NCBI GenBank assembly: GCA_039190745.1
Contig: JBCCXZ010000032.1
Location: 1 to 42,383, forward strand
Source: Planctomycetota bacterium
Lineage (GTDB): Bacteria > Planctomycetota > Planctomycetia > Pirellulales > Lacipirellulaceae
Length of the DNA stretch: 42,383 nt
Reading direction: 5' to 3'
How positions within the stretch are numbered: the first letter of the stretch is position 1; each line of letters opens with the position of its first letter. The position numbers and the translations under genes are program-made. The notes beneath the pieces were generated by a model. It saw nothing but the letters and a program-made list of their open reading frames with translations, did no database searches and was not told the origin of the DNA. Below, one piece after another: positions 13,432 through 31,534 of the stretch.

Positions 13432-15357
13432 TCAGAACATCCACTCCACGCCGGCCTGCAGGCCGTGCACGATCAGCGAACCGTTGCTGTGGATGTAAGC
13501 CAAGTTGTTGGAAGTGCTGAACTCGTGCGGCGTCTGGTCAACCGACAGGGCCACGCCGGAGATGGCCAAAGCACGCCAGCCGCCGTAGAGGCGCCAGTGG
13601 CACCACGGGCGGTAGCTGATGCCGGCCCGGATCTCGCCGAGCATGGCGAAGTCTTCGTCAGAGACGGTCGAGGCTACGGGCGTCCCCTCGTTGGAGTAGG
13701 TCACGTCGCCGCCGGTGAAGAACCGGGTCGCTTCCATGTCGTTGGCGAACACGCCGACCACGGTGTTGCAGTGCAGGGCCCACTTGCCTTGGCAGCCAAG
13801 GTGGTAGACGCCGTTGCAGCCCCACTGGGCGCCGTACAGCTCGTTGTCGACCAGCGAGTTCCACTCAACGTAACCCGTGGCGGCACTGGTGGTGTTCTCC
13901 CAGTCCGACCGCAAGAAGAAGTTGTCGTCGAACCGCAGGAAGCGGAAGCCGAATACCGACGAGATCGAGCACCGCGATCCGCAACCGCAGTTGAGCTGCG
14001 GCAGCTTGATCAGGTTGAACTCGGCGTTCTGCATCGAGAAATTGGTCCGCATGGTAAGGCTGCGGATCTCGACGTCGTTGGTGCCCACGGGGTTGCCGTA
14101 GTCGTAGTAGTCGTTCAGCGGGCGTGCGCCGGCGCCGGCGTCGTACTGGGCTCCCACCCAGGGCTTCTTGCCGTAGGTCCGCCAGGCGTCGCCGGCGGTG
14201 TCGAAGACCTGGAACTGGGTGTCGTCTTCGGCGAGGCCCCAGTAGACGCCTTCCCAAGCCCAGCGGGGACCGCAGCCGCAGCCGCCGCAACAACCGGCGT
14301 CGCAGCCGCAACCGCCTCCCATGCCGCCGCCGAGGCCCACGCCCCCGCCGTGGCTGACGAAGCCGCCGCCGAAGGTCGAGCCGAACCGCACTTCAGCTCC
14401 GCCCTGGTAGTCGTAGTCGATGTCGCGGGTGCTCATCACCACCTCAGACGGGTGCGGGTAGTAGCCGGCCCCGTTCGCGGTGGAGGTGGTGTAGGCGAGG
14501 TCGATCGACGCTTTGTTGTCGACACGCTCCATCAGTAGGCCGTAGACGCCGCCGAACCATTGGCGACGAGGCCTGCAGCCGTGCTTCAGCCCGCGACCGA
14601 GGTACCCGCTGTCGCAACCGCCGACGCCGCAGGAGCCGTCCGCACAGCCGTAAACGCTGGCCGCACCGGTCTCACAGGTGCTGCAACCGGGCTGGCCCAT
14701 CGGTGCATGTTGCGGGATGGGCTGCCCGTAGGTCTGGTCCATCGGGGCGTGCACCGTCGGCGAGCCGAGTTCCACCCCGGGCATCACCGGCTCGGTCACC
14801 ACCGGAGCGCCGACGCCGCCCGCGGGAACCTGTGCCCGACGCATCGACATCGCCGTGTACTGTGGGGCGCCCGGCTGGAACGCCCCGGAAGTGGCGGCGG
14901 CAGCGTGGGGCTGCACGTATCCGGGTTGCGAGCCGTAGCTGGTTGGCGGGGCGCTTTGCGAAGCGGCCTGCTGCGACGCAGCGGCTTGGCCTACGAAGGT
15001 TGTCCCTACGGGAGTTTGGGTCGCTACGGGCGAGAACTGCTGGGGAGCTGCCGTGCCCACGCCGGCCACGCTCGGCGTGCCGTAACGACCGCCCGTCGAG
15101 AAGTTGGTCTGCGGGGCCTGAACGGTCTGGCCGAATGCCTGGCCAGACATCGGACCCGGCACGGGGCGGTATCCGCCGCCTTGCAGGTTCTGGTACGGCG
15201 TCTGAACGGGCGTTGTCTGCACCGTCTGCACCGCGGTCTGCACGCTGTTCGGTTGATAGCCAACAAACTGCGCCGCCGCCGGGGCGACGGTCATCGCGGT
15301 GAGCGAGGCCGCCCACAACGCGCCGGCCAAGCACCGGCTGATCCTGTGAACTCGCAT
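13432..15357 (-). CDS. BBP7-type outer-membrane beta-barrel protein
   Basis: Signal peptide, Q/P-rich linker, Cys/Gly-rich patches, GFRFLRFDD, NELYGAQWG and a C-terminal SLIVHGLQAGVEWMF ending in Phe. Confidence 0.8.
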   Translation of the reverse strand: MRVHRISRCLAGALWAASLTAMTVAPAAAQFVGYQPNSVQTAVQTVQTTPVQTPYQNLQGGGYRPVPGPMSGQAFGQTVQAPQTNFSTGGRYGTPSVAGVGTAAPQQFSPVATQTPVGTTFVGQAAASQQAASQSAPPTSYGSQPGYVQPHAAAATSGAFQPGAPQYTAMSMRRAQVPAGGVGAPVVTEPVMPGVELGSPTVHAPMDQTYGQPIPQHAPMGQPGCSTCETGAASVYGCADGSCGVGGCDSGYLGRGLKHGCRPRRQWFGGVYGLLMERVDNKASIDLAYTTSTANGAGYYPHPSEVVMSTRDIDYDYQGGAEVRFGSTFGGGFVSHGGGVGLGGGMGGGCGCDAGCCGGCGCGPRWAWEGVYWGLAEDDTQFQVFDTAGDAWRTYGKKPWVGAQYDAGAGARPLNDYYDYGNPVGTNDVEIRSLTMRTNFSMQNAEFNLIKLPQLNCGCGSRCSISSVFGFRFLRFDDNFFLRSDWENTTSAATGYVEWNSLVDNELYGAQWGCNGVYHLGCQGKWALHCNTVVGVFANDMEATRFFTGGDVTYSNEGTPVASTVSDEDFAMLGEIRAGISYRPWCHWRLYGGWRALAISGVALSVDQTPHEFSTSNNLAYIHSNGSLIVHGLQAGVEWMF

Positions 15358-24886: not shown

Positions 24887-26146
24887 TTACGCCGGCACCG
24901 TTGCCAGCGGGAAGTCCAGCCGCGGCTCATTGCGCGATCGCAACCAGAGCATCGCCGCCGCAGCCAGCACGAACACCGCCAGGCTAATGTTCTGAGAGAT
25001 GCTCATCTCGGTACCGAACACGGGCGACTCGTCCACGCGGATCACCTCCAGCAGGAACCGGGCGACCGGGTATAAGAGAAGCATCAACGCGGTCACCTCG
25101 CCCTCGCTGCGGCGGAAGGCGTAGAAGGTCCACAGCAGCCAGCAGAGCAGAGCGGCGTTCACTGCGCTGTAGATCTGCGTGGGGTGGATCGGCCGGCTGC
25201 GAACGCTTGCTGGCGGGTTGAGCAGCACGGCCCGATCGCCGACCTGCAGAGCGAGCGGCCGGCCTTCTCTGACGGTGGCCAAGAGAGCGTCGGCCAGTTC
25301 GGCCCGATTCCGGACGCCGTAACCGCCTGCGGCGCGGATCGTGTCGCCCTCGACGAGCCCCGCCTCAGCACCGGGCGACGCCTCAACCACCGCGAGCACA
25401 TCGACGCCCGCTGCGCCGTCGGTGAGCGTCAGCCCGAACAGCGTCCCGCGGCGTGCCTGCTCGATCGTGGGCAGGCTGTCGGCCGGGAACTGCACCGCCC
25501 ACGGCACGTCCGTCACGCCGCCGTAGCAGCAGCCGTTCAGCAAGCACCCGAGCCGCCCCAGCGCCAGGCCGGCCACGAGCGAAGGGGCGATGAGGTCGGC
25601 CATCGCCAACGGCGGCAGGCGATGCTTCAGCGTGTACCCCACAAACGCGAGCATCGCCCCCGCGAGCGCGCCGTACACGACCAGCCCGCCTTCGGTGAAC
25701 TTCAACGCTTCAACCAGCGTCTCGCGCCAGTCGCCGCAGCTGAAGCGTTCTTCCCAGTACTCGATCACGAAGAAGAGCCGCGCCCCCAGGATCCCCAAGA
25801 TGAACATCCAAAAAGCCAGCCCGTGGATCACTTCCACGGAGAGCCCCGCCTGACGCGCTCGGAACCCAGCCATCCACAGCCCAGCGACCGAGCCCAGCAG
25901 CACCATCAACCCGTAGCCGCGGATCGGCAGCCCTGAGGGCATCAGCCGCGGCAATGCGACGATGGCGATGGCGCCAAGGGCCAGTGCCGGCAGGTAGCCC
26001 CACACTTCGCTGGCGCCGCTTGGCCCTTTGCGCACATTCCACAGCACCGCTCCGCCCACGATGCACCACGCGGCCAGCAGCAACCCGAAGCCGAAGATCG
26101 GCACGCCCTGCCAGGTCATCGGGATGCGGAACAGTTCCGAGCACAT
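24887..26146 (-). CDS. lgt: Prolipoprotein diacylglyceryl transferase with PDZ-like insertion
   Basis: IRGYGLM, GARLFFV, GGLVVYGAL, GRLGCLLNGCCYG, HPTQIY and RFLLEVIR. Confidence 0.92.
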   Translation of the reverse strand: MCSELFRIPMTWQGVPIFGFGLLLAAWCIVGGAVLWNVRKGPSGASEVWGYLPALALGAIAIVALPRLMPSGLPIRGYGLMVLLGSVAGLWMAGFRARQAGLSVEVIHGLAFWMFILGILGARLFFVIEYWEERFSCGDWRETLVEALKFTEGGLVVYGALAGAMLAFVGYTLKHRLPPLAMADLIAPSLVAGLALGRLGCLLNGCCYGGVTDVPWAVQFPADSLPTIEQARRGTLFGLTLTDGAAGVDVLAVVEASPGAEAGLVEGDTIRAAGGYGVRNRAELADALLATVREGRPLALQVGDRAVLLNPPASVRSRPIHPTQIYSAVNAALLCWLLWTFYAFRRSEGEVTALMLLLYPVARFLLEVIRVDESPVFGTEMSISQNISLAVFVLAAAAMLWLRSRNEPRLDFPLATVPA

Positions 26147-26188
26147 ACGCACGCCTCCTCCGGCCGTCTGTCTGAACAGGCCGCGAGG

Positions 26189-27115
26189 CTAACCGATGGT
26201 GTGATTGTCGATCAATCGCGTTGTGCCGACCCGTGCTGCGACCGCCACGACCGTGGGGCCTTCGACCCGCTCGACCGGCTCCACCGTGCCGTCTGCCAAC
26301 AGGGCGATGTATTCGGTCTCGACGCCCCCTTCCGCGTCGATCAACGCCGCCATGGCCGCACGCAGCGTCTCCGCGTCGGCCTCGCCCTCAGTGTGCAGCG
26401 CCTCTGCTAGCTGCAGCGCCCGCCACAGTACAGCGGCCCGTTCGCGGTTCTCTCGGGACAGGTAGGCGTTCCGACTGCTCATCGCCAGACCGTCCGCCTC
26501 GCGTACGATCGGACAGACCCGCACCAAGGTCGGCACGTTGAGGTCACGCACCATGCGCTCAACGACAAGCGATTGCTGGTAGTCTTTCCGCCCAAAGTAG
26601 GCGTGCGTCGCCGGTACGATCTGTAGCAGTTTCAGTACAACCGTCGCCACGCCGTCGAAGTGCCCCGGCCGCGCGGCGCCTTCCAACACCGCCGCCTCTT
26701 GGCCCACGCGCACCGTTGTGGCGAATCCGTCGGGGTACATCGCCGCGACGCTCGGCGCAAAGACTCTCACGTCACCCACCGCTCTGACCATCGCGGCGTC
26801 GCGTTCCAGGTCGCGTGGGTACTTGTCGAGGTCTTCGGTCGGGCCGAATTGCGTCGGGTTCACGAACACGCTCACCACCGTGTGCTCGCACTCCGCGAGC
26901 GACGCCTCCACTAGGCTGAGGTGCCCGCGGTGCAGGGCGCCCATGGTCGGCACGAAACCGATGGTTGCGCCGGATGCACGCAGGATACTAACCGCCTCCC
27001 ACGTCTCGCGGGGGTCTCGCACGATTGTCACGGCTTGCGTTTGGCTGGAGAGCACTTGCGTTTGGCTGAAGAGTACGCGTGCGATGGGTTTGGATCTTTC
27101 AGCGGCCCCGCTCAA
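26189..27115 (-). CDS. panC: Pantoate-beta-alanine ligase
   Basis: FVPTMGALHRGH, SVFVNPTQF, RPGHFDGV, FGRKDYQQ, GLAMSSRN and TRLIDN. TTG 27115 overlaps the folK stop (TTGA); alternative start GTG 27031. Confidence 0.95.
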   Translation of the reverse strand: MSGAAERSKPIARVLFSQTQVLSSQTQAVTIVRDPRETWEAVSILRASGATIGFVPTMGALHRGHLSLVEASLAECEHTVVSVFVNPTQFGPTEDLDKYPRDLERDAAMVRAVGDVRVFAPSVAAMYPDGFATTVRVGQEAAVLEGAARPGHFDGVATVVLKLLQIVPATHAYFGRKDYQQSLVVERMVRDLNVPTLVRVCPIVREADGLAMSSRNAYLSRENRERAAVLWRALQLAEALHTEGEADAETLRAAMAALIDAEGGVETEYIALLADGTVEPVERVEGPTVVAVAARVGTTRLIDNHTIG

Positions 27116-28155
27116 TCGTCCGCTTCGGGCGACCCGTCCGAATCCTCGTTGCCCGTCGGCGACGAAGGCCACGCCGCCGCAACCGCCGCCGCCGCCTCGT
27201 GGAGGGCTTCTTCCGGCTCAGCCGTCTCGATAACCAGCAATGGGCCGCGGGCGTCTTGTTTCAACAGACCATGTACCGCCTCCGCGGGCAAGTTGGCCGG
27301 GTGTTCGCCGGCGCCCGTGGTACCGGGGAGCTGCACGTCCGCTGCCGGCAGCCACGCGATGACAAGCGTCGGCTCGACAACTTCACCGCCCTCGGGCCCG
27401 CCGCAAGCCGTTTCCACTGCCGGCAGCCAGAACGGGCTCACCGCCGGGGGCGGCTCGTTCGCGGGCCGGTCGGTTTCGTTCGACAGGCACTCCACCAGCC
27501 CGGGCGCTGATTCCCAGAAAGAAACTTGCAAAACGCTGTGGACGCCCCGTCGATAGGCAGCCGCGTCGCCCGGAGCGTCGTCGCTTCCCGAGGTCGGGGC
27601 AACCACCGGGCAGCCAAGCCGGGCGTGCAAACCCTCGGTCAACCAAGTCGCCAAACCGACGCGTGGCGCAACCACTGCGGCGTAGCGCGGCCCCTCGCGA
27701 AGCCGTGTGAGCAACTCATCCAGCGTGCAGCCCGATGGCGGGTGCAGCATCTGCCCCGCGATCTGCGCCGCCGGCTCGACCACAAACCGGCGGAAACTCA
27801 TCCGCGGGTGCGGCACTTCAACGTCGCCGCAGCGGAGCACCTGGTCGCCGTAGAGCAGCAGGTCGAGGTCCAGCGTACGCTGCCCCCACCGCACCCGGCG
27901 GACCCGGCCGAGCTGCCGCTCGATTTCCAATAGCCGATCGAGCAAGGCTTCCGCTGGGAGCTCGGTCTCGACAACCGCCGCCCCGTTCAGGAAATCGGGT
28001 TGCCCCTCCGGCCCGCCCACCGAGGCGGTCCGATGCCAGGGGCTGAACGCGACCAGCTCCATCTCTTCAGCGCCGTCGATCGCCGCAACTGCTCCGGCAA
28101 GCGAGTCTTCCGGCGGGCCTTCGTTCGAACCCAAAGCGATCAGGCAGCGGATCAA
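27112..28155 (-). CDS. folK: HPPK (FolK) with long C-terminal extension
   Basis: IALGSN, QPDFLNGA, IERQLGRVR..RWGQRTLDLDLL and VPHPRMSFRRFV, plus about 190 extra residues. Confidence 0.92.
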   Translation of the reverse strand: MIRCLIALGSNEGPPEDSLAGAVAAIDGAEEMELVAFSPWHRTASVGGPEGQPDFLNGAAVVETELPAEALLDRLLEIERQLGRVRRVRWGQRTLDLDLLLYGDQVLRCGDVEVPHPRMSFRRFVVEPAAQIAGQMLHPPSGCTLDELLTRLREGPRYAAVVAPRVGLATWLTEGLHARLGCPVVAPTSGSDDAPGDAAAYRRGVHSVLQVSFWESAPGLVECLSNETDRPANEPPPAVSPFWLPAVETACGGPEGGEVVEPTLVIAWLPAADVQLPGTTGAGEHPANLPAEAVHGLLKQDARGPLLVIETAEPEEALHEAAAAVAAAWPSSPTGNEDSDGSPEADD

Positions 28156-28254: not shown

Positions 28255-28292
28255 AAAAAAAACGGGCCCGGGTCGGTGCGACCCAGGCCCGT
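28255..28292 (-). terminator. Intrinsic terminator
   Basis: Minus strand ACGGGCCUGGGUCG-CAC-CGACCCGGGCCCGU followed by a long U run. Confidence 0.85.
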
Positions 28293-28442
28293 CGGGCTTC
28301 CGTGCCAATCGGTCCGAAAAAAGGGGGGGACCTCCATGTGCCTGGTCTACAGAACACCGTCCGCAAACCACCGACGTCGATCCGGTCGGTTGTCGCCCCC
28401 CTGATTCAAGGCCCGAGGGTCTTTCCTTGGTATCTCCTTACC

Positions 28443-28578
28443 CCAACTGCAACGCCTCCGTGCGGTGGGTGCTCTCGGCGGATTGGCTTGAGACGCATGC
28501 GGTCGGACCGGGGTTCCACGTCAGGTGGAATGCTATCCCTTCACCAAACCGGCTCCTCGAAAAAGTCTTTAGTTGCCT
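28443..28578 (-). ncRNA. ssrS: Probable 6S RNA (core), apparently embedded in a larger structured RNA
   Basis: Long irregular hairpin on the minus strand: a CAACU/AGUUG helix, a central bubble, a GGAGC/GCACC helix with an A-A mismatch within GAGAGCACCCACC (resembling the conserved 6S elements), then GGUUUGGU/GCCAAUCC and GGGAU-GCAU/AUGC-GUCUC. No credible ORF. Called by eye, not by covariance model. Confidence 0.6.
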
Positions 28579-28750
28579 TCTCTTGTTCGCGTGAAGCCTG
28601 ATGCTCAGGCACGGACGCAAACAAACACGACGCGGCATTAGCGCGCACCGGTTGCGCACTTGAGGCCGCAATTTCTACCTCGCTTGGCTTCGAGACGGAC
28701 CCGCGGCACGCACCCTTTGTGCATTGCTCAACGAGCTAAACGCCCGAGAT

Positions 28751-28781
28751 AAAAAAGACAAGCAGCCTCGCGGCTGCCTGT
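28751..28781 (-). terminator. Terminator-like hairpin shortly after a promoter
   Basis: ACAGGCAGCC-GCGA-GGCUGCUUGU-C-UUUUUU, with a GNRA loop and a G-U pair on the minus strand. Confidence 0.7.
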
Positions 28782-28819
28782 GGTGGAACACGTCAAAACA
28801 CACTCAACGAACGCGTTGC

Positions 28820-28847
28820 ATTTTGCCGAAGTGTCTTCACATGTCAA
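28820..28847 (-). promoter_or_regulatory. Candidate sigma70 promoter
   Basis: TTGACA-N16-CAAAAT on the minus strand. Confidence 0.55.
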
Positions 28848-29068
28848 GCGACTTTTCTTCGCGCTTCGTTCACATTTTGGGCGAATAAATTCTGCGTCCA
28901 ACGGCTTGACATCGTGCGACCTACGAACCGCGATTGCCGCGCCACCCCATCAGCGTTCACTTCCTGCAGAGCGCAAGCGGCAGTAGCATGAAGGGCCGTT
29001 CAGCGCATCGCGCACTGCGTTGAAGGTTCCCCGCGCAGGCACGCAGAAACCCTCGATTGAAACGACGC

Positions 29069-30991
29069 ATGGCGACCAGCAGCGACAACTTCAACGGCGC
29101 AACGATCGCCGCGTTTGAGAGCCGCCGCGCCCCGGACGCCGAGCGCATGATCCAACGCCTCGGCGGCCGCGCCTTCGTCAGCCCTTCGATGCGCGAGGTC
29201 GCGCTCGACGACGACCGTGCGGCGATCGACTTCGCCAACTTGTTGCTCACCGGTCAGGTCGACATCGCGGTTTTCCTCACCGGCGTGGGGACCCGCCGAT
29301 TGGTCGAGGTCGTCACGAAGCACGTCGACCGTCAGCGTTTCCTCGACGCCCTTGCCGACGCCACGACCGTGCTCCGCGGGCCAAAGCCGCTGGCTGTCTT
29401 CCGCGAACTAGGCCTCACGCCCAACGCCTCGGCGCCGGAGCCCAACACGTGGCGTGAGCTGCTCGCCGTGTTCGACGAGCAGTACCCGCCCGCGAACCTT
29501 ACCGTCGCGGTGCAGGAGTACGGCGTGCCCAACGTCAGCCTGATCGCCGGCCTTGAGGCGCGCGGGGCAAACGTGCTCAGCGTGCCCGTCTACCGCTGGG
29601 CGCTCCCGGAAGACACCGGCCCTTTGGAGGCCAACGTGCGTCGCATCGCCGAGGGCGAGATCGACGCGGTCGTCTTCACCTCCGCCCAGCAAGTGGTCCA
29701 CATGCTGCAGTCGGCCGCGCAGGTTGGCGTCGAGGAACCGCTGCGCCGGCAGCTGAGCCAAAACCTCATCGCCTCGGTCGGCCCGACGACCACCGAGATG
29801 CTCCGCTCGCAGGGGCTGCCCGTCGACTTCGAGCCGAGCCACCCCAAGCTCGGCCACCTGATCACCGAGCTTGCGGCGCAGTCGGGCGAGCTGCTCGCGC
29901 GAAAGCGATCGATCCGTGAGCGCATCGACGTTGCGCAGCCAAGCGGCGACAACGAGCAGGCGGCTTGGCACGACAGCCCGTTCTTACGCGCCTGCCGACG
30001 CGAGCCGGTCCCCTACACGCCACTGTGGCTGATGCGGCAAGCGGGACGGTACATGGCCGAATACCGCGCGGTCCGTTCGCAGCACTCGTTCCTCGAGCTG
30101 TGCCGCCGGCCCGACCTCTGCAGCGAGATTATGTGCACCGCCGTCGAGAAGTTGGGCGTCGACGCCGCGATCATCTTCTCCGACCTGCTGCCGATCCTCG
30201 AACCGATGGGGCTCGACCTCGAGTTCGTCGCGGGCGACGGGCCGCAGATCAACAACCCGGTGCGCGAGGCGGGCGACGTCGACCGCGTGCTGGAGCTCGA
30301 GAACATCGACGCGCTCGGCTTCGTGTACGAAACCGTCGCCGCCACCCGCCGCGACCTTCCCGAACATATCCCGCTGATCGGTTTCGCCGGCGCGCCGTTC
30401 ACGCTCGCCAGTTACACCATCGAGGGCGGCTCCAGCCGCAGCTTCCTGCACACCAAGACGCTCATGCACCGCGAGCCGGCAGCCTGGAACGAGTTGATGC
30501 AGCGCCTCTCGCGGTCGATCATCCGCTACCTCAATGCCCAAATCGCCGCCGGCGCCCAGGCCGTGCAGATCTTCGACAGCTGGGTGGGCTGCCTCTCGGT
30601 GGGCGACTACGCCGCGCACGTGCTGCCGCACGTCAAGCAGATCGCCGCCGGCTTGCACCCGGGCGTGCCGCTCATCCACTTCGGCACCGGCAACCCGGCG
30701 CTCTTGCCGCTGATGGCCGAAGTGGGCGACGTGATCGGCGTTGACTGGCGGATCGGGCTCGCCGACGCCTGGGAGGCGGTCGGGCACGACAAAGCCGTGC
30801 AGGGCAACCTCGACCCCGCCGTGCTGCTGGGCGACCTCGCCGCCATCCGGGCCCAGGCCAAGGCGGTCTTGGACCAAGCCGCGGGCCGGCCGGGGCACGT
30901 CTTCAACCTCGGCCACGGCGTCCTGCAGCAGACGCCCGTCGACCATGCATGCGCATTGGTCGACATGGTCCACGAGATGAGTGCGCGCTGA
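29069..30991 (+). CDS. hemE: Fused uroporphyrinogen-III synthase (HemD) / uroporphyrinogen decarboxylase (HemE)
   Basis: N-half: FESRRA, FLTGVG, RGPKP, VYRW, VFTSAQQV, ASVGPTT (HemD). C-half: PLWLMRQAGRYMAEY, AAIIFSDLL, GFAGAPFTLASY, QIFDSW, QGNLDP, FNLGHG (HemE). Confidence 0.93.
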   Translation: MATSSDNFNGATIAAFESRRAPDAERMIQRLGGRAFVSPSMREVALDDDRAAIDFANLLLTGQVDIAVFLTGVGTRRLVEVVTKHVDRQRFLDALADATTVLRGPKPLAVFRELGLTPNASAPEPNTWRELLAVFDEQYPPANLTVAVQEYGVPNVSLIAGLEARGANVLSVPVYRWALPEDTGPLEANVRRIAEGEIDAVVFTSAQQVVHMLQSAAQVGVEEPLRRQLSQNLIASVGPTTTEMLRSQGLPVDFEPSHPKLGHLITELAAQSGELLARKRSIRERIDVAQPSGDNEQAAWHDSPFLRACRREPVPYTPLWLMRQAGRYMAEYRAVRSQHSFLELCRRPDLCSEIMCTAVEKLGVDAAIIFSDLLPILEPMGLDLEFVAGDGPQINNPVREAGDVDRVLELENIDALGFVYETVAATRRDLPEHIPLIGFAGAPFTLASYTIEGGSSRSFLHTKTLMHREPAAWNELMQRLSRSIIRYLNAQIAAGAQAVQIFDSWVGCLSVGDYAAHVLPHVKQIAAGLHPGVPLIHFGTGNPALLPLMAEVGDVIGVDWRIGLADAWEAVGHDKAVQGNLDPAVLLGDLAAIRAQAKAVLDQAAGRPGHVFNLGHGVLQQTPVDHACALVDMVHEMSAR

Positions 30992-31000
30992 GCGCTGGGG

Positions 31001-31246
31001 CTAAGCGGAGGGCCGGCGGAAGTACTGGTAAGCCAGCAGCACTTCGTAGAGGTCGGTCGAGATCGTGATCTCGTCGTCGTCGAAGTCGCTCAGCCAGGTG
31101 CGCTGGCTCTTCACCGCGTCCGCGAGCAGAGGCAGCACCTCGGCCATCGGCATGGTGACGCAGTTCTGCCCCTCGTTGTTCTTGCCGAACATCGGGGCCG
31201 AGTCTTCGGCGGGGCCGTTATAGAGTTTCAAATGGCTTGCTGGCAT
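31001..31246 (-). CDS. Small hypothetical protein (81 aa)
   Basis: MPASHLKLY...LADAVKSQRTWLSDFDDDEITISTDLYEVLLAY, with strong G/C third-position bias. Confidence 0.75.
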   Translation of the reverse strand: MPASHLKLYNGPAEDSAPMFGKNNEGQNCVTMPMAEVLPLLADAVKSQRTWLSDFDDDEITISTDLYEVLLAYQYFRRPSA

Positions 31247-31534
31247 TCCGTGGGTTCCTTCCCGCCGAGAATGGTGGCGCCGCACCGGCAATACGCAGCC
31301 CGGCACCGTGTTCCGAGATCCCCCTCGTACCTACCTGTATCGGCGGTGACGCCCTTCTGCTTTGGTACTTCTGGAGAAGAACTGACGATTTTCCCAGCCG
31401 CAGCTAGCAAACTCCCCAGCCGCCGCCTGCCCTGGAGCCCGCCGCGGGGGTCGCCTACGATGACAGCACGCAGCCGACGGCCGCCCCCGCAGCCCGACTC
31501 CGGCTCTCCCCAACCCGTAGGCAACGATACCAGC

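Follow-up and report, generated by a model that had tools for sequence, protein, structure and literature searches.

A conserved structured RNA upstream of folK in Pirellulales and its possible role as a Csr/Rsm decoy

A promoter-to-terminator interval upstream of folK

The window, i.e., the whole stretch of DNA analysed (42,383 nt), comes from a member of the Lacipirellulaceae (order Pirellulales) and contains an intergenic interval, read on the minus strand, that separates a divergent hemD-hemE fusion gene (29057-30991, plus strand), a neighbour in many loci of the family, from the genes folK, panC and lgt (28155-24887, minus strand). The usual downstream neighbour, folK (27112-28155), encodes an HPPK domain with a C-terminal extension of about 200 aa that has no Pfam match; it is followed by panC (26189-27172) and then by lgt (24887-26152), which carries an inserted PDZ-like segment. 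A 101-aa ORF at 31001-31306 (minus strand), likewise without a Pfam match, is convergent on hemD-hemE. The sequence-only reading of this DNA had described the interval as a noncoding RNA gene bounded by a TTGACA promoter and a strong terminator, and both signals were found. The promoter is of the sigma70 type (28820-28857, minus strand) and consists of an A-tract, a -35 TTGACA (28847-28842), a 16-nt spacer and a -10 CAAAAT (28825-28820), from which transcription is predicted to start near 28813. It is conserved order-wide, since a TTGAC-(16 or 17)-minus-10 pattern lies upstream of the conserved domain described below in 109 of 116 homologous loci (spacer of 16 nt in 80 loci and 17 nt in 29), with 53-610 nt (median 306) between the -10 and the domain across the order. 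A promoter weight matrix built from 80 loci, the window's promoter included, detected no further site above 17 bits in the genome from which the window comes (G000). A second TTGACA on the opposite strand (28905-28911, plus), about 60 nt upstream of the element promoter and seen by eye in many family loci, is likely the -35 of a hemD-hemE promoter. At the other end, an intrinsic terminator (28255-28293, minus strand) forms the predicted RNA 3' end in this genome; its stem shows many compensatory changes in a sub-clade, and together with the hairpin before it the terminator gave a folding z of -5.2. Terminator-like hairpins were present downstream of the domain at 58 of 116 loci in comparison to 12 on the reverse strand. 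A conserved ORF is absent from the interval, as had been stated, and a leader peptide or small ORF was ruled out by the absence of any shared ATG-started ORF of at least 12 aa in 63 leaders.

Folding of the 559-nt interval gave z=-2.68 on the minus strand versus -1.25 on the plus strand, in agreement with the minus-strand folding claimed earlier, but the middle 341 nt (28410-28750) alone gave z=-0.82, and much of the signal is therefore that of the two end hairpins. The helix claimed at the 5' end was recovered as a hairpin (28781-28758, z=-4.1) that is followed by a U-rich tract (28751-28781 for the whole feature, minus strand), a combination that is possibly an attenuator. It is a feature of the sub-clade, where 16 aligned loci (of 19 tried) showed two-sided changes in four of five consensus pairs. 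The middle part is a variable spacer (28410-28750, minus strand) conserved in neither sequence nor length. In a BLAST search of 60 relatives with a 641-nt query, the same-genus genome G001 aligned to 230 nt at the start of the query and to 174 nt at its end and left the middle unaligned, and across the order the spacer measures 50-610 nt. The shortest version of the RNA (locus L031 of G034) has about 47 nt from presumed start to domain, which shows the spacer to be dispensable. The "6S-like rod" proposed at 28443-28578 lies in this spacer; it showed no rod fold (z=+0.5) and was not aligned to G001. Two further proposed helices (28632-28669 and 28596-28610) occur in the MFE structure but are not kept in G001, and the 8-bp long-range helix (28615-28608 with 28306-28299) that was to close a unit does exist in the sequence but is attributed to chance, its 5' partner being missing in G001 and long-range 8-mer helices numbering two observed against 2.9 expected. 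The spacer also contains a TGCGCGC motif (28641-28647, minus strand), which recurs in 39 of 109 leaders; the reverse strand gave 12 and shuffles 3.6. Its distance from the promoter is nearly constant, 25 of the 39 lying 124-173 nt from the presumed start, and it may be a DNA site or an RNA contact.

The conserved 3' domain

The region that had been passed over as "more 3' hairpins" is indeed structured, and it proved to hold a strongly conserved 3' domain of about 70-90 structured nt (28313-28409, minus strand; 58.7 bits with model R1). We located folK in 97 of 101 family genomes, and a shared motif of 65-100 nt was present upstream of it in 67 of the 71 regions examined out of these 97; four of the 67 copies scored poorly with nhmmer (E 0.02-1.2) and were retained after inspection. 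Model R1, built from the 67 family copies, was searched in 141 genomes of the order. At E<=0.05 it matched 128 of them and at E<1e-3 it matched 127, of which ten belong to the training set; outside the training family, 117 of 131 genomes were matched. There was nearly always one copy per genome, with two strong copies only in G213 and G053. Outside the order, the best E values were 1e-3 among 140 phylum-level genomes and 2e-3 among 92 genomes from other orders of the class. A second model, R2, built from 100 order-wide copies, added nothing convincing in 40 chosen genomes except one diverged copy before folK in G222 (18.9 bits). R2 also gave weak matches beyond the order, at up to 28.9 bits, and in G192 and G141; as these were promoterless and overlapped or abutted long open frames, they were treated as chance. 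The single 34-nt match from a plasmid search was disregarded.

Because RNAalifold returned no base pairs for the MAFFT alignment (A1), a structure was drawn up manually from mean pairing probabilities and was later extended. On the minus strand, the closing helix P1 would pair a G-run (28401-28396) with a C-run (28328-28323) and enclose the hairpin P2, which carries a GGA loop (GGA at 28383-28381), the hairpin P3 (about 28367-28346), whose loop is variable, and the short hairpin P4, a 3-bp stem with a GGA hexaloop (GGA at 28335-28333). P1 is followed by a U-tract (28322-28317), found in 90 of 100 aligned copies, and the junction bases other than GGA are conserved at 88-100%. Pairing on 99 distinct rows, in an alignment fitted to R1 (which held most of P1 and P3, part of P2 and no P4), covered 81% of cells (shuffles 74%, slid controls 46-54%), and two-sided changes occurred in 20 of 23 domain pairs. 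On this evidence P1, which was extended by covarying pairs, and P3 appear well supported, and P2 (67-83% paired) and P4 (84% paired, with three pair types at one position) more weakly so. The full four-way fold lay a median of 10 kcal/mol above the MFE, and an alternative extending P1 lay 3.7 above it. With a home-made tree-based covariation null no single pair was significant (best E about 2.8); six of the top eight pairs belonged to P1 or P3. The possibility that the conservation acts at the DNA level or arose by chance, with functional RNA absent, would fit the modest thermodynamic signal of the domain (mean z -1.46 versus -1.33 on the other strand, 60 of 96 loci), but we consider it barely credible given the 81% of cells paired, above the slid controls, the two-sided changes in 20 of 23 pairs, and the single orientation that promoter, domain and U-tract keep.

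The G-run followed by a GGAUCGAC-like loop resembles the 5' end of tmRNA. This candidate was rejected, as no model match, tRNA-like domain or tag frame was found at the element and ordinary tmRNA is encoded elsewhere in five of five relatives. ARAGORN and RF00023 did not find tmRNA in the whole G000 assembly, which is probably an assembly gap; RNase P and SRP RNA were located elsewhere in G000.

Relation to 6S RNA and to folK

The sequence-only reading interpreted the interval as an enlarged 6S RNA or a 6S joined to a second RNA domain. The comparative evidence upheld a structured noncoding RNA gene between promoter and terminator, but not its identity as 6S. In the Rfam check that this reading had proposed, RF00013 gave no match in the window, including the locus itself, in 40 homologous loci (20+20) or in five single-contig family genomes (0/5, E<=1), and Rfam 15 as a whole gave no match to the window at gathering level and, at E<=10, a single weak match that lies elsewhere in the window and has no bearing on the element. 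The interval was not matched by a profile built from 18 planctomycete 6S RNAs, and in the other direction R1 scored none of these 18 RNAs above 14 bits. As regards a closing stem, pairing between the cognate flanks of the domain did not exceed that of non-cognate flanks (mean z -0.25, n=67, and -0.20, n=38), and no closing stem or promoter-mimic central bubble was found around the domain. A lack of conservation outside the proposed core had been named as grounds for dropping the idea; the reverse was found, with conservation only outside that core. Orthology with 6S was rejected, as G202 and G037 carry a true 6S on one contig and the element on another. The 6S matches in three Pirellulales (G202:C41:6026-6234, G037:C49:163620-163843 and G417:C78:30518-30728, with 47, 42 and 28 bits; L170-L172) have flanking genes in common, and the syntenic site in G000 (C59, about 14960-15125) is a short spacer with no 6S match. 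A composite 6S would suit a genome where this site is empty and no other 6S is detectable, and it would suit the strong promoter and terminator, but with neither RF00013 nor the 18-sequence profile matching, no cognate pairing of the flanks, a rod that is neither stable nor conserved, and true 6S coexisting at another locus, this reading is largely refuted and we regard it as highly improbable. The two RNAs show opposite distributions: RF00013 detected 6S in 79 of the 92 genomes from other orders versus 3 of 28 genomes of this order, and in the same sets the domain was found in 21 of 28 genomes of this order and in none of the 92 at a strong score. According to the available text of PMC5673643, Thermogutta has no 6S, and absence in Pirellula and Rhodopirellula is cited there. 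A few members of this order, which is reported to be without 6S in its cultured models, do have a genuine 6S at a separate locus.

The linkage of the domain to folK raises a different alternative, in which the domain would be a cis-acting leader of folK-panC-lgt, either a riboswitch aptamer or a protein-controlled attenuator (possibly controlled by CsrA), with transcription terminating at P1 plus the U-tract or at the hairpin that comes next. In families other than the training family, 41 of 45 loci (28 top matches and 17 hand-picked) have folK after the domain, one of the four remaining loci ending at a contig edge, and at some loci the folK start is no more than 30 nt from the model end and has no separate terminator before it. 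The high conservation of the junction bases also fits a leader, as does the observation that, of 15 folK loci taken from genomes with no strong match, 14 had no upstream copy at E<0.01 and that folK in these 15 loci often lies directly behind another gene. Despite the 41 of 45 loci, the domain is not invariably located before a coherent gene on the same strand. An intact, high-scoring domain (52-74 bits) faces a convergent gene in G016 and G035 (cytidylate-kinase-like), G202 (PilM-like) and G048, an MMPL-family gene follows the domain in G139, other DNA intervenes in G011, and folK is reversed in G070. The convergent cases leave a cis-acting switch no target and therefore favour a stand-alone RNA. 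Also against a leader are three genomes of genus g16 that keep the domain with changed P1 sequences, the median of 306 nt between promoter and domain, the lack of any Rfam riboswitch match, and an excess of -10-like hexamers between domain and folK (30 of 109 loci versus 21 on the reverse strand and 14.8 in shuffles), which hints weakly at a separate folK promoter. Taken together, we judge the cis-acting leader unlikely. The element has a promoter, a terminator or U-tract and no conserved ORF, and it is kept before convergent genes; from these sequence features we infer a stand-alone RNA, with folK able to use its promoter as well.

GGA motifs and a candidate CsrA/Rsm decoy

The two GGA triplets are the best-kept bases of the domain, being retained in 95 (site 1) and 93 (site 2) of 100 aligned copies at a spacing of 22-60 nt. 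An ANGGA motif is present at one or both sites in 82 of the 100 copies and at both in 23, and site 2 has no nearby A in 39. The available text of PMC7652899 describes ANGGAN hexaloops as high-affinity CsrA sites and a single CsrA dimer as bridging 10-63 nt, and the spacing and ANGGA motifs found here fit these rules. Across the domains of 109 loci there were 57 hairpins with ANGGAN loops, whereas shuffles gave 4.6 and the reverse strand 11; related loci inflate the count. The G000 stretch 28461-28303 contains four such hairpins, a number reached by only two 200-nt windows in the genome, the other lying in an open frame. An additional 3-bp hairpin with an ANGGAN loop (28453-28464, minus strand) is not kept in G001, and a canonical CsrA-type hairpin (CANGGANG, 28295-28306, minus strand) stands directly before the terminator. 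The latter was found in 16 of 18 loci of the sub-clade (genera g1 and g6) and stays beside the terminator despite insertions of more than 100 nt; its closing C-G pair is present in 17 of 17 aligned loci (one with a changed GGA is included and one without the hairpin omitted), and its two N positions vary. CsrB-like GGA repeats along the spacer were rejected, as 337 GGA were counted in 63 loci versus 375 in shuffles, i.e., no enrichment.

CsrA-family proteins are encoded in all 141 genomes of the order, at 2-17 copies per genome, including all 13 genomes without an R1 match. G000 has eight CsrA-family genes (C12, C121, two on C7, C8, C103, C1 and C14). Several of these have ANGGA motifs over their own ribosome-binding regions, and cross-regulation is therefore suggested. 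The prevalence of CsrA in Planctomycetota has been noted (PMC13443453, available text), and FliW rather than an sRNA has been proposed for Planctomycetes (PMC4682653, available text); FliW was present in five of five genomes tested.

The element is a genuine structured RNA family, so far undescribed and kept in most of one order, whose mode of action most likely resembles that of Csr/Rsm decoys. The specific proposal, that the conserved promoter-spacer-domain-terminator unit is a stand-alone CsrA/Rsm-binding decoy RNA of new architecture, is one we hold as evenly balanced between right and wrong. Transcription would run from about 28813 to 28255, giving an RNA of about 560 nt here and of about 130 to more than 600 nt across the order. 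One CsrA dimer would bridge the GGA loops of P2 and P4, further dimers would bind the extra ANGGAN hairpins in lineages having them, and the RNA would titrate CsrA/Rsm proteins, drawing them off the mRNAs they target. At loci with no intervening terminator, the transcript would continue into folK-panC-lgt, which would explain the gene linkage. Several observations count against a decoy. Unlike CsrB or RsmZ, each RNA offers only two to four sites and has a long spacer that is not rich in GGA; site 2 is non-canonical in many copies, with so few copies having ANGGA at both core sites; CsrA occurs in the 13 element-negative genomes, FliW in all five genomes tested, and folK in most loci as the next gene; and the four-way fold lies well above the MFE, with RNAalifold yielding no pairs on the plain alignment and the tree-based null no single pair that was significant. 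In addition, the conservation of the non-GGA junction bases exceeds what a simple decoy needs. These same bases would be accommodated if the stand-alone RNA had a partner other than CsrA, e.g., RNA polymerase, with the RNA as a functional stand-in for 6S and the GGA triplets structural. A near-single copy, order-wide occurrence, a strong conserved promoter and the reversed distribution of domain and 6S all fit such a partner, but G202 and G037 hold both RNAs, promoter-mimic bubble and closing stem are missing, and the lineage-specific canonical CsrA hairpins in the same transcript would be left unexplained, so that we view a non-CsrA partner as rather unlikely.

The decoy reading can be carried further, to an order-wide CsrA-sequestering sRNA with a new fold, in which a core of several helices would hold the two GGA loops pre-arranged for one dimer and which would act beside FliW and double as a folK-panC-lgt leader where no terminator is present; in this full form it is tentative, and we would lean slightly against it. 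If true, an sRNA would join FliW in controlling a CsrA family of as many as 17 paralogues, in a phylum for which dependence on FliW has been proposed (PMC4682653, available text). The element is absent from Rfam 15, and no description of it was found in the literature at the level of listings and abstract openings. The main texts of PMC11109978, PMC8632094 and bioRxiv 10.64898/2026.10.21.760802, as available, contain no planctomycetes, folK or CsrA, and their supplements could list the motif. No described RNA antagonist of the Pirellulales CsrA paralogues (2-17 per genome) was found in the literature, and the question of such an antagonist becomes directly testable with one conserved RNA whose GGA sites are defined. 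Whatever the partner, a structured RNA family new to description is added and a false 6S call is corrected.

In comparison with known systems, the domain differs from tmRNA (RF00023) in having no T-arm, CCA end or tag frame. 6S RNA holds a fixed position before a folate-pathway gene in the 6S-ygfA linkage. The element is similar to 6S RNA (RF00013) in being a single-copy intergenic RNA gene with a sigma70-type promoter and a position before a folate-pathway gene, and unlike it in its variable length and its lack of a closing stem, central bubble or model match. Leaders of mRNAs that CsrA binds, e.g., that of E. coli glgC (PMC7652899, available text), likewise have ANGGAN hairpins upstream of a coding gene; in contrast, the sites of the element lie clear of the ribosome-binding region of folK in most loci, element and gene are often separated by a terminator, and the element persists without a downstream gene. 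With the gammaproteobacterial Csr/Rsm decoys (CsrB, CsrC, RsmY, RsmZ and RsmX) it shares an own promoter and terminator, the lack of an ORF, GGA in predicted short hairpin loops, ANGGAN hexaloops at some of the sites, a spacing suited to a dimer and hosts that encode CsrA (PMC7652899, available text). Judged by its sequence, it is outside every described family of this kind (CsrB, CsrC, RsmX/Y/Z): it has two to four sites and no Rfam match to those families, its 5' part is long, variable and GGA-poor, its Pirellulales hosts also encode FliW, and its two core sites are embedded in a conserved domain of several helices, which a G/C helix closes.
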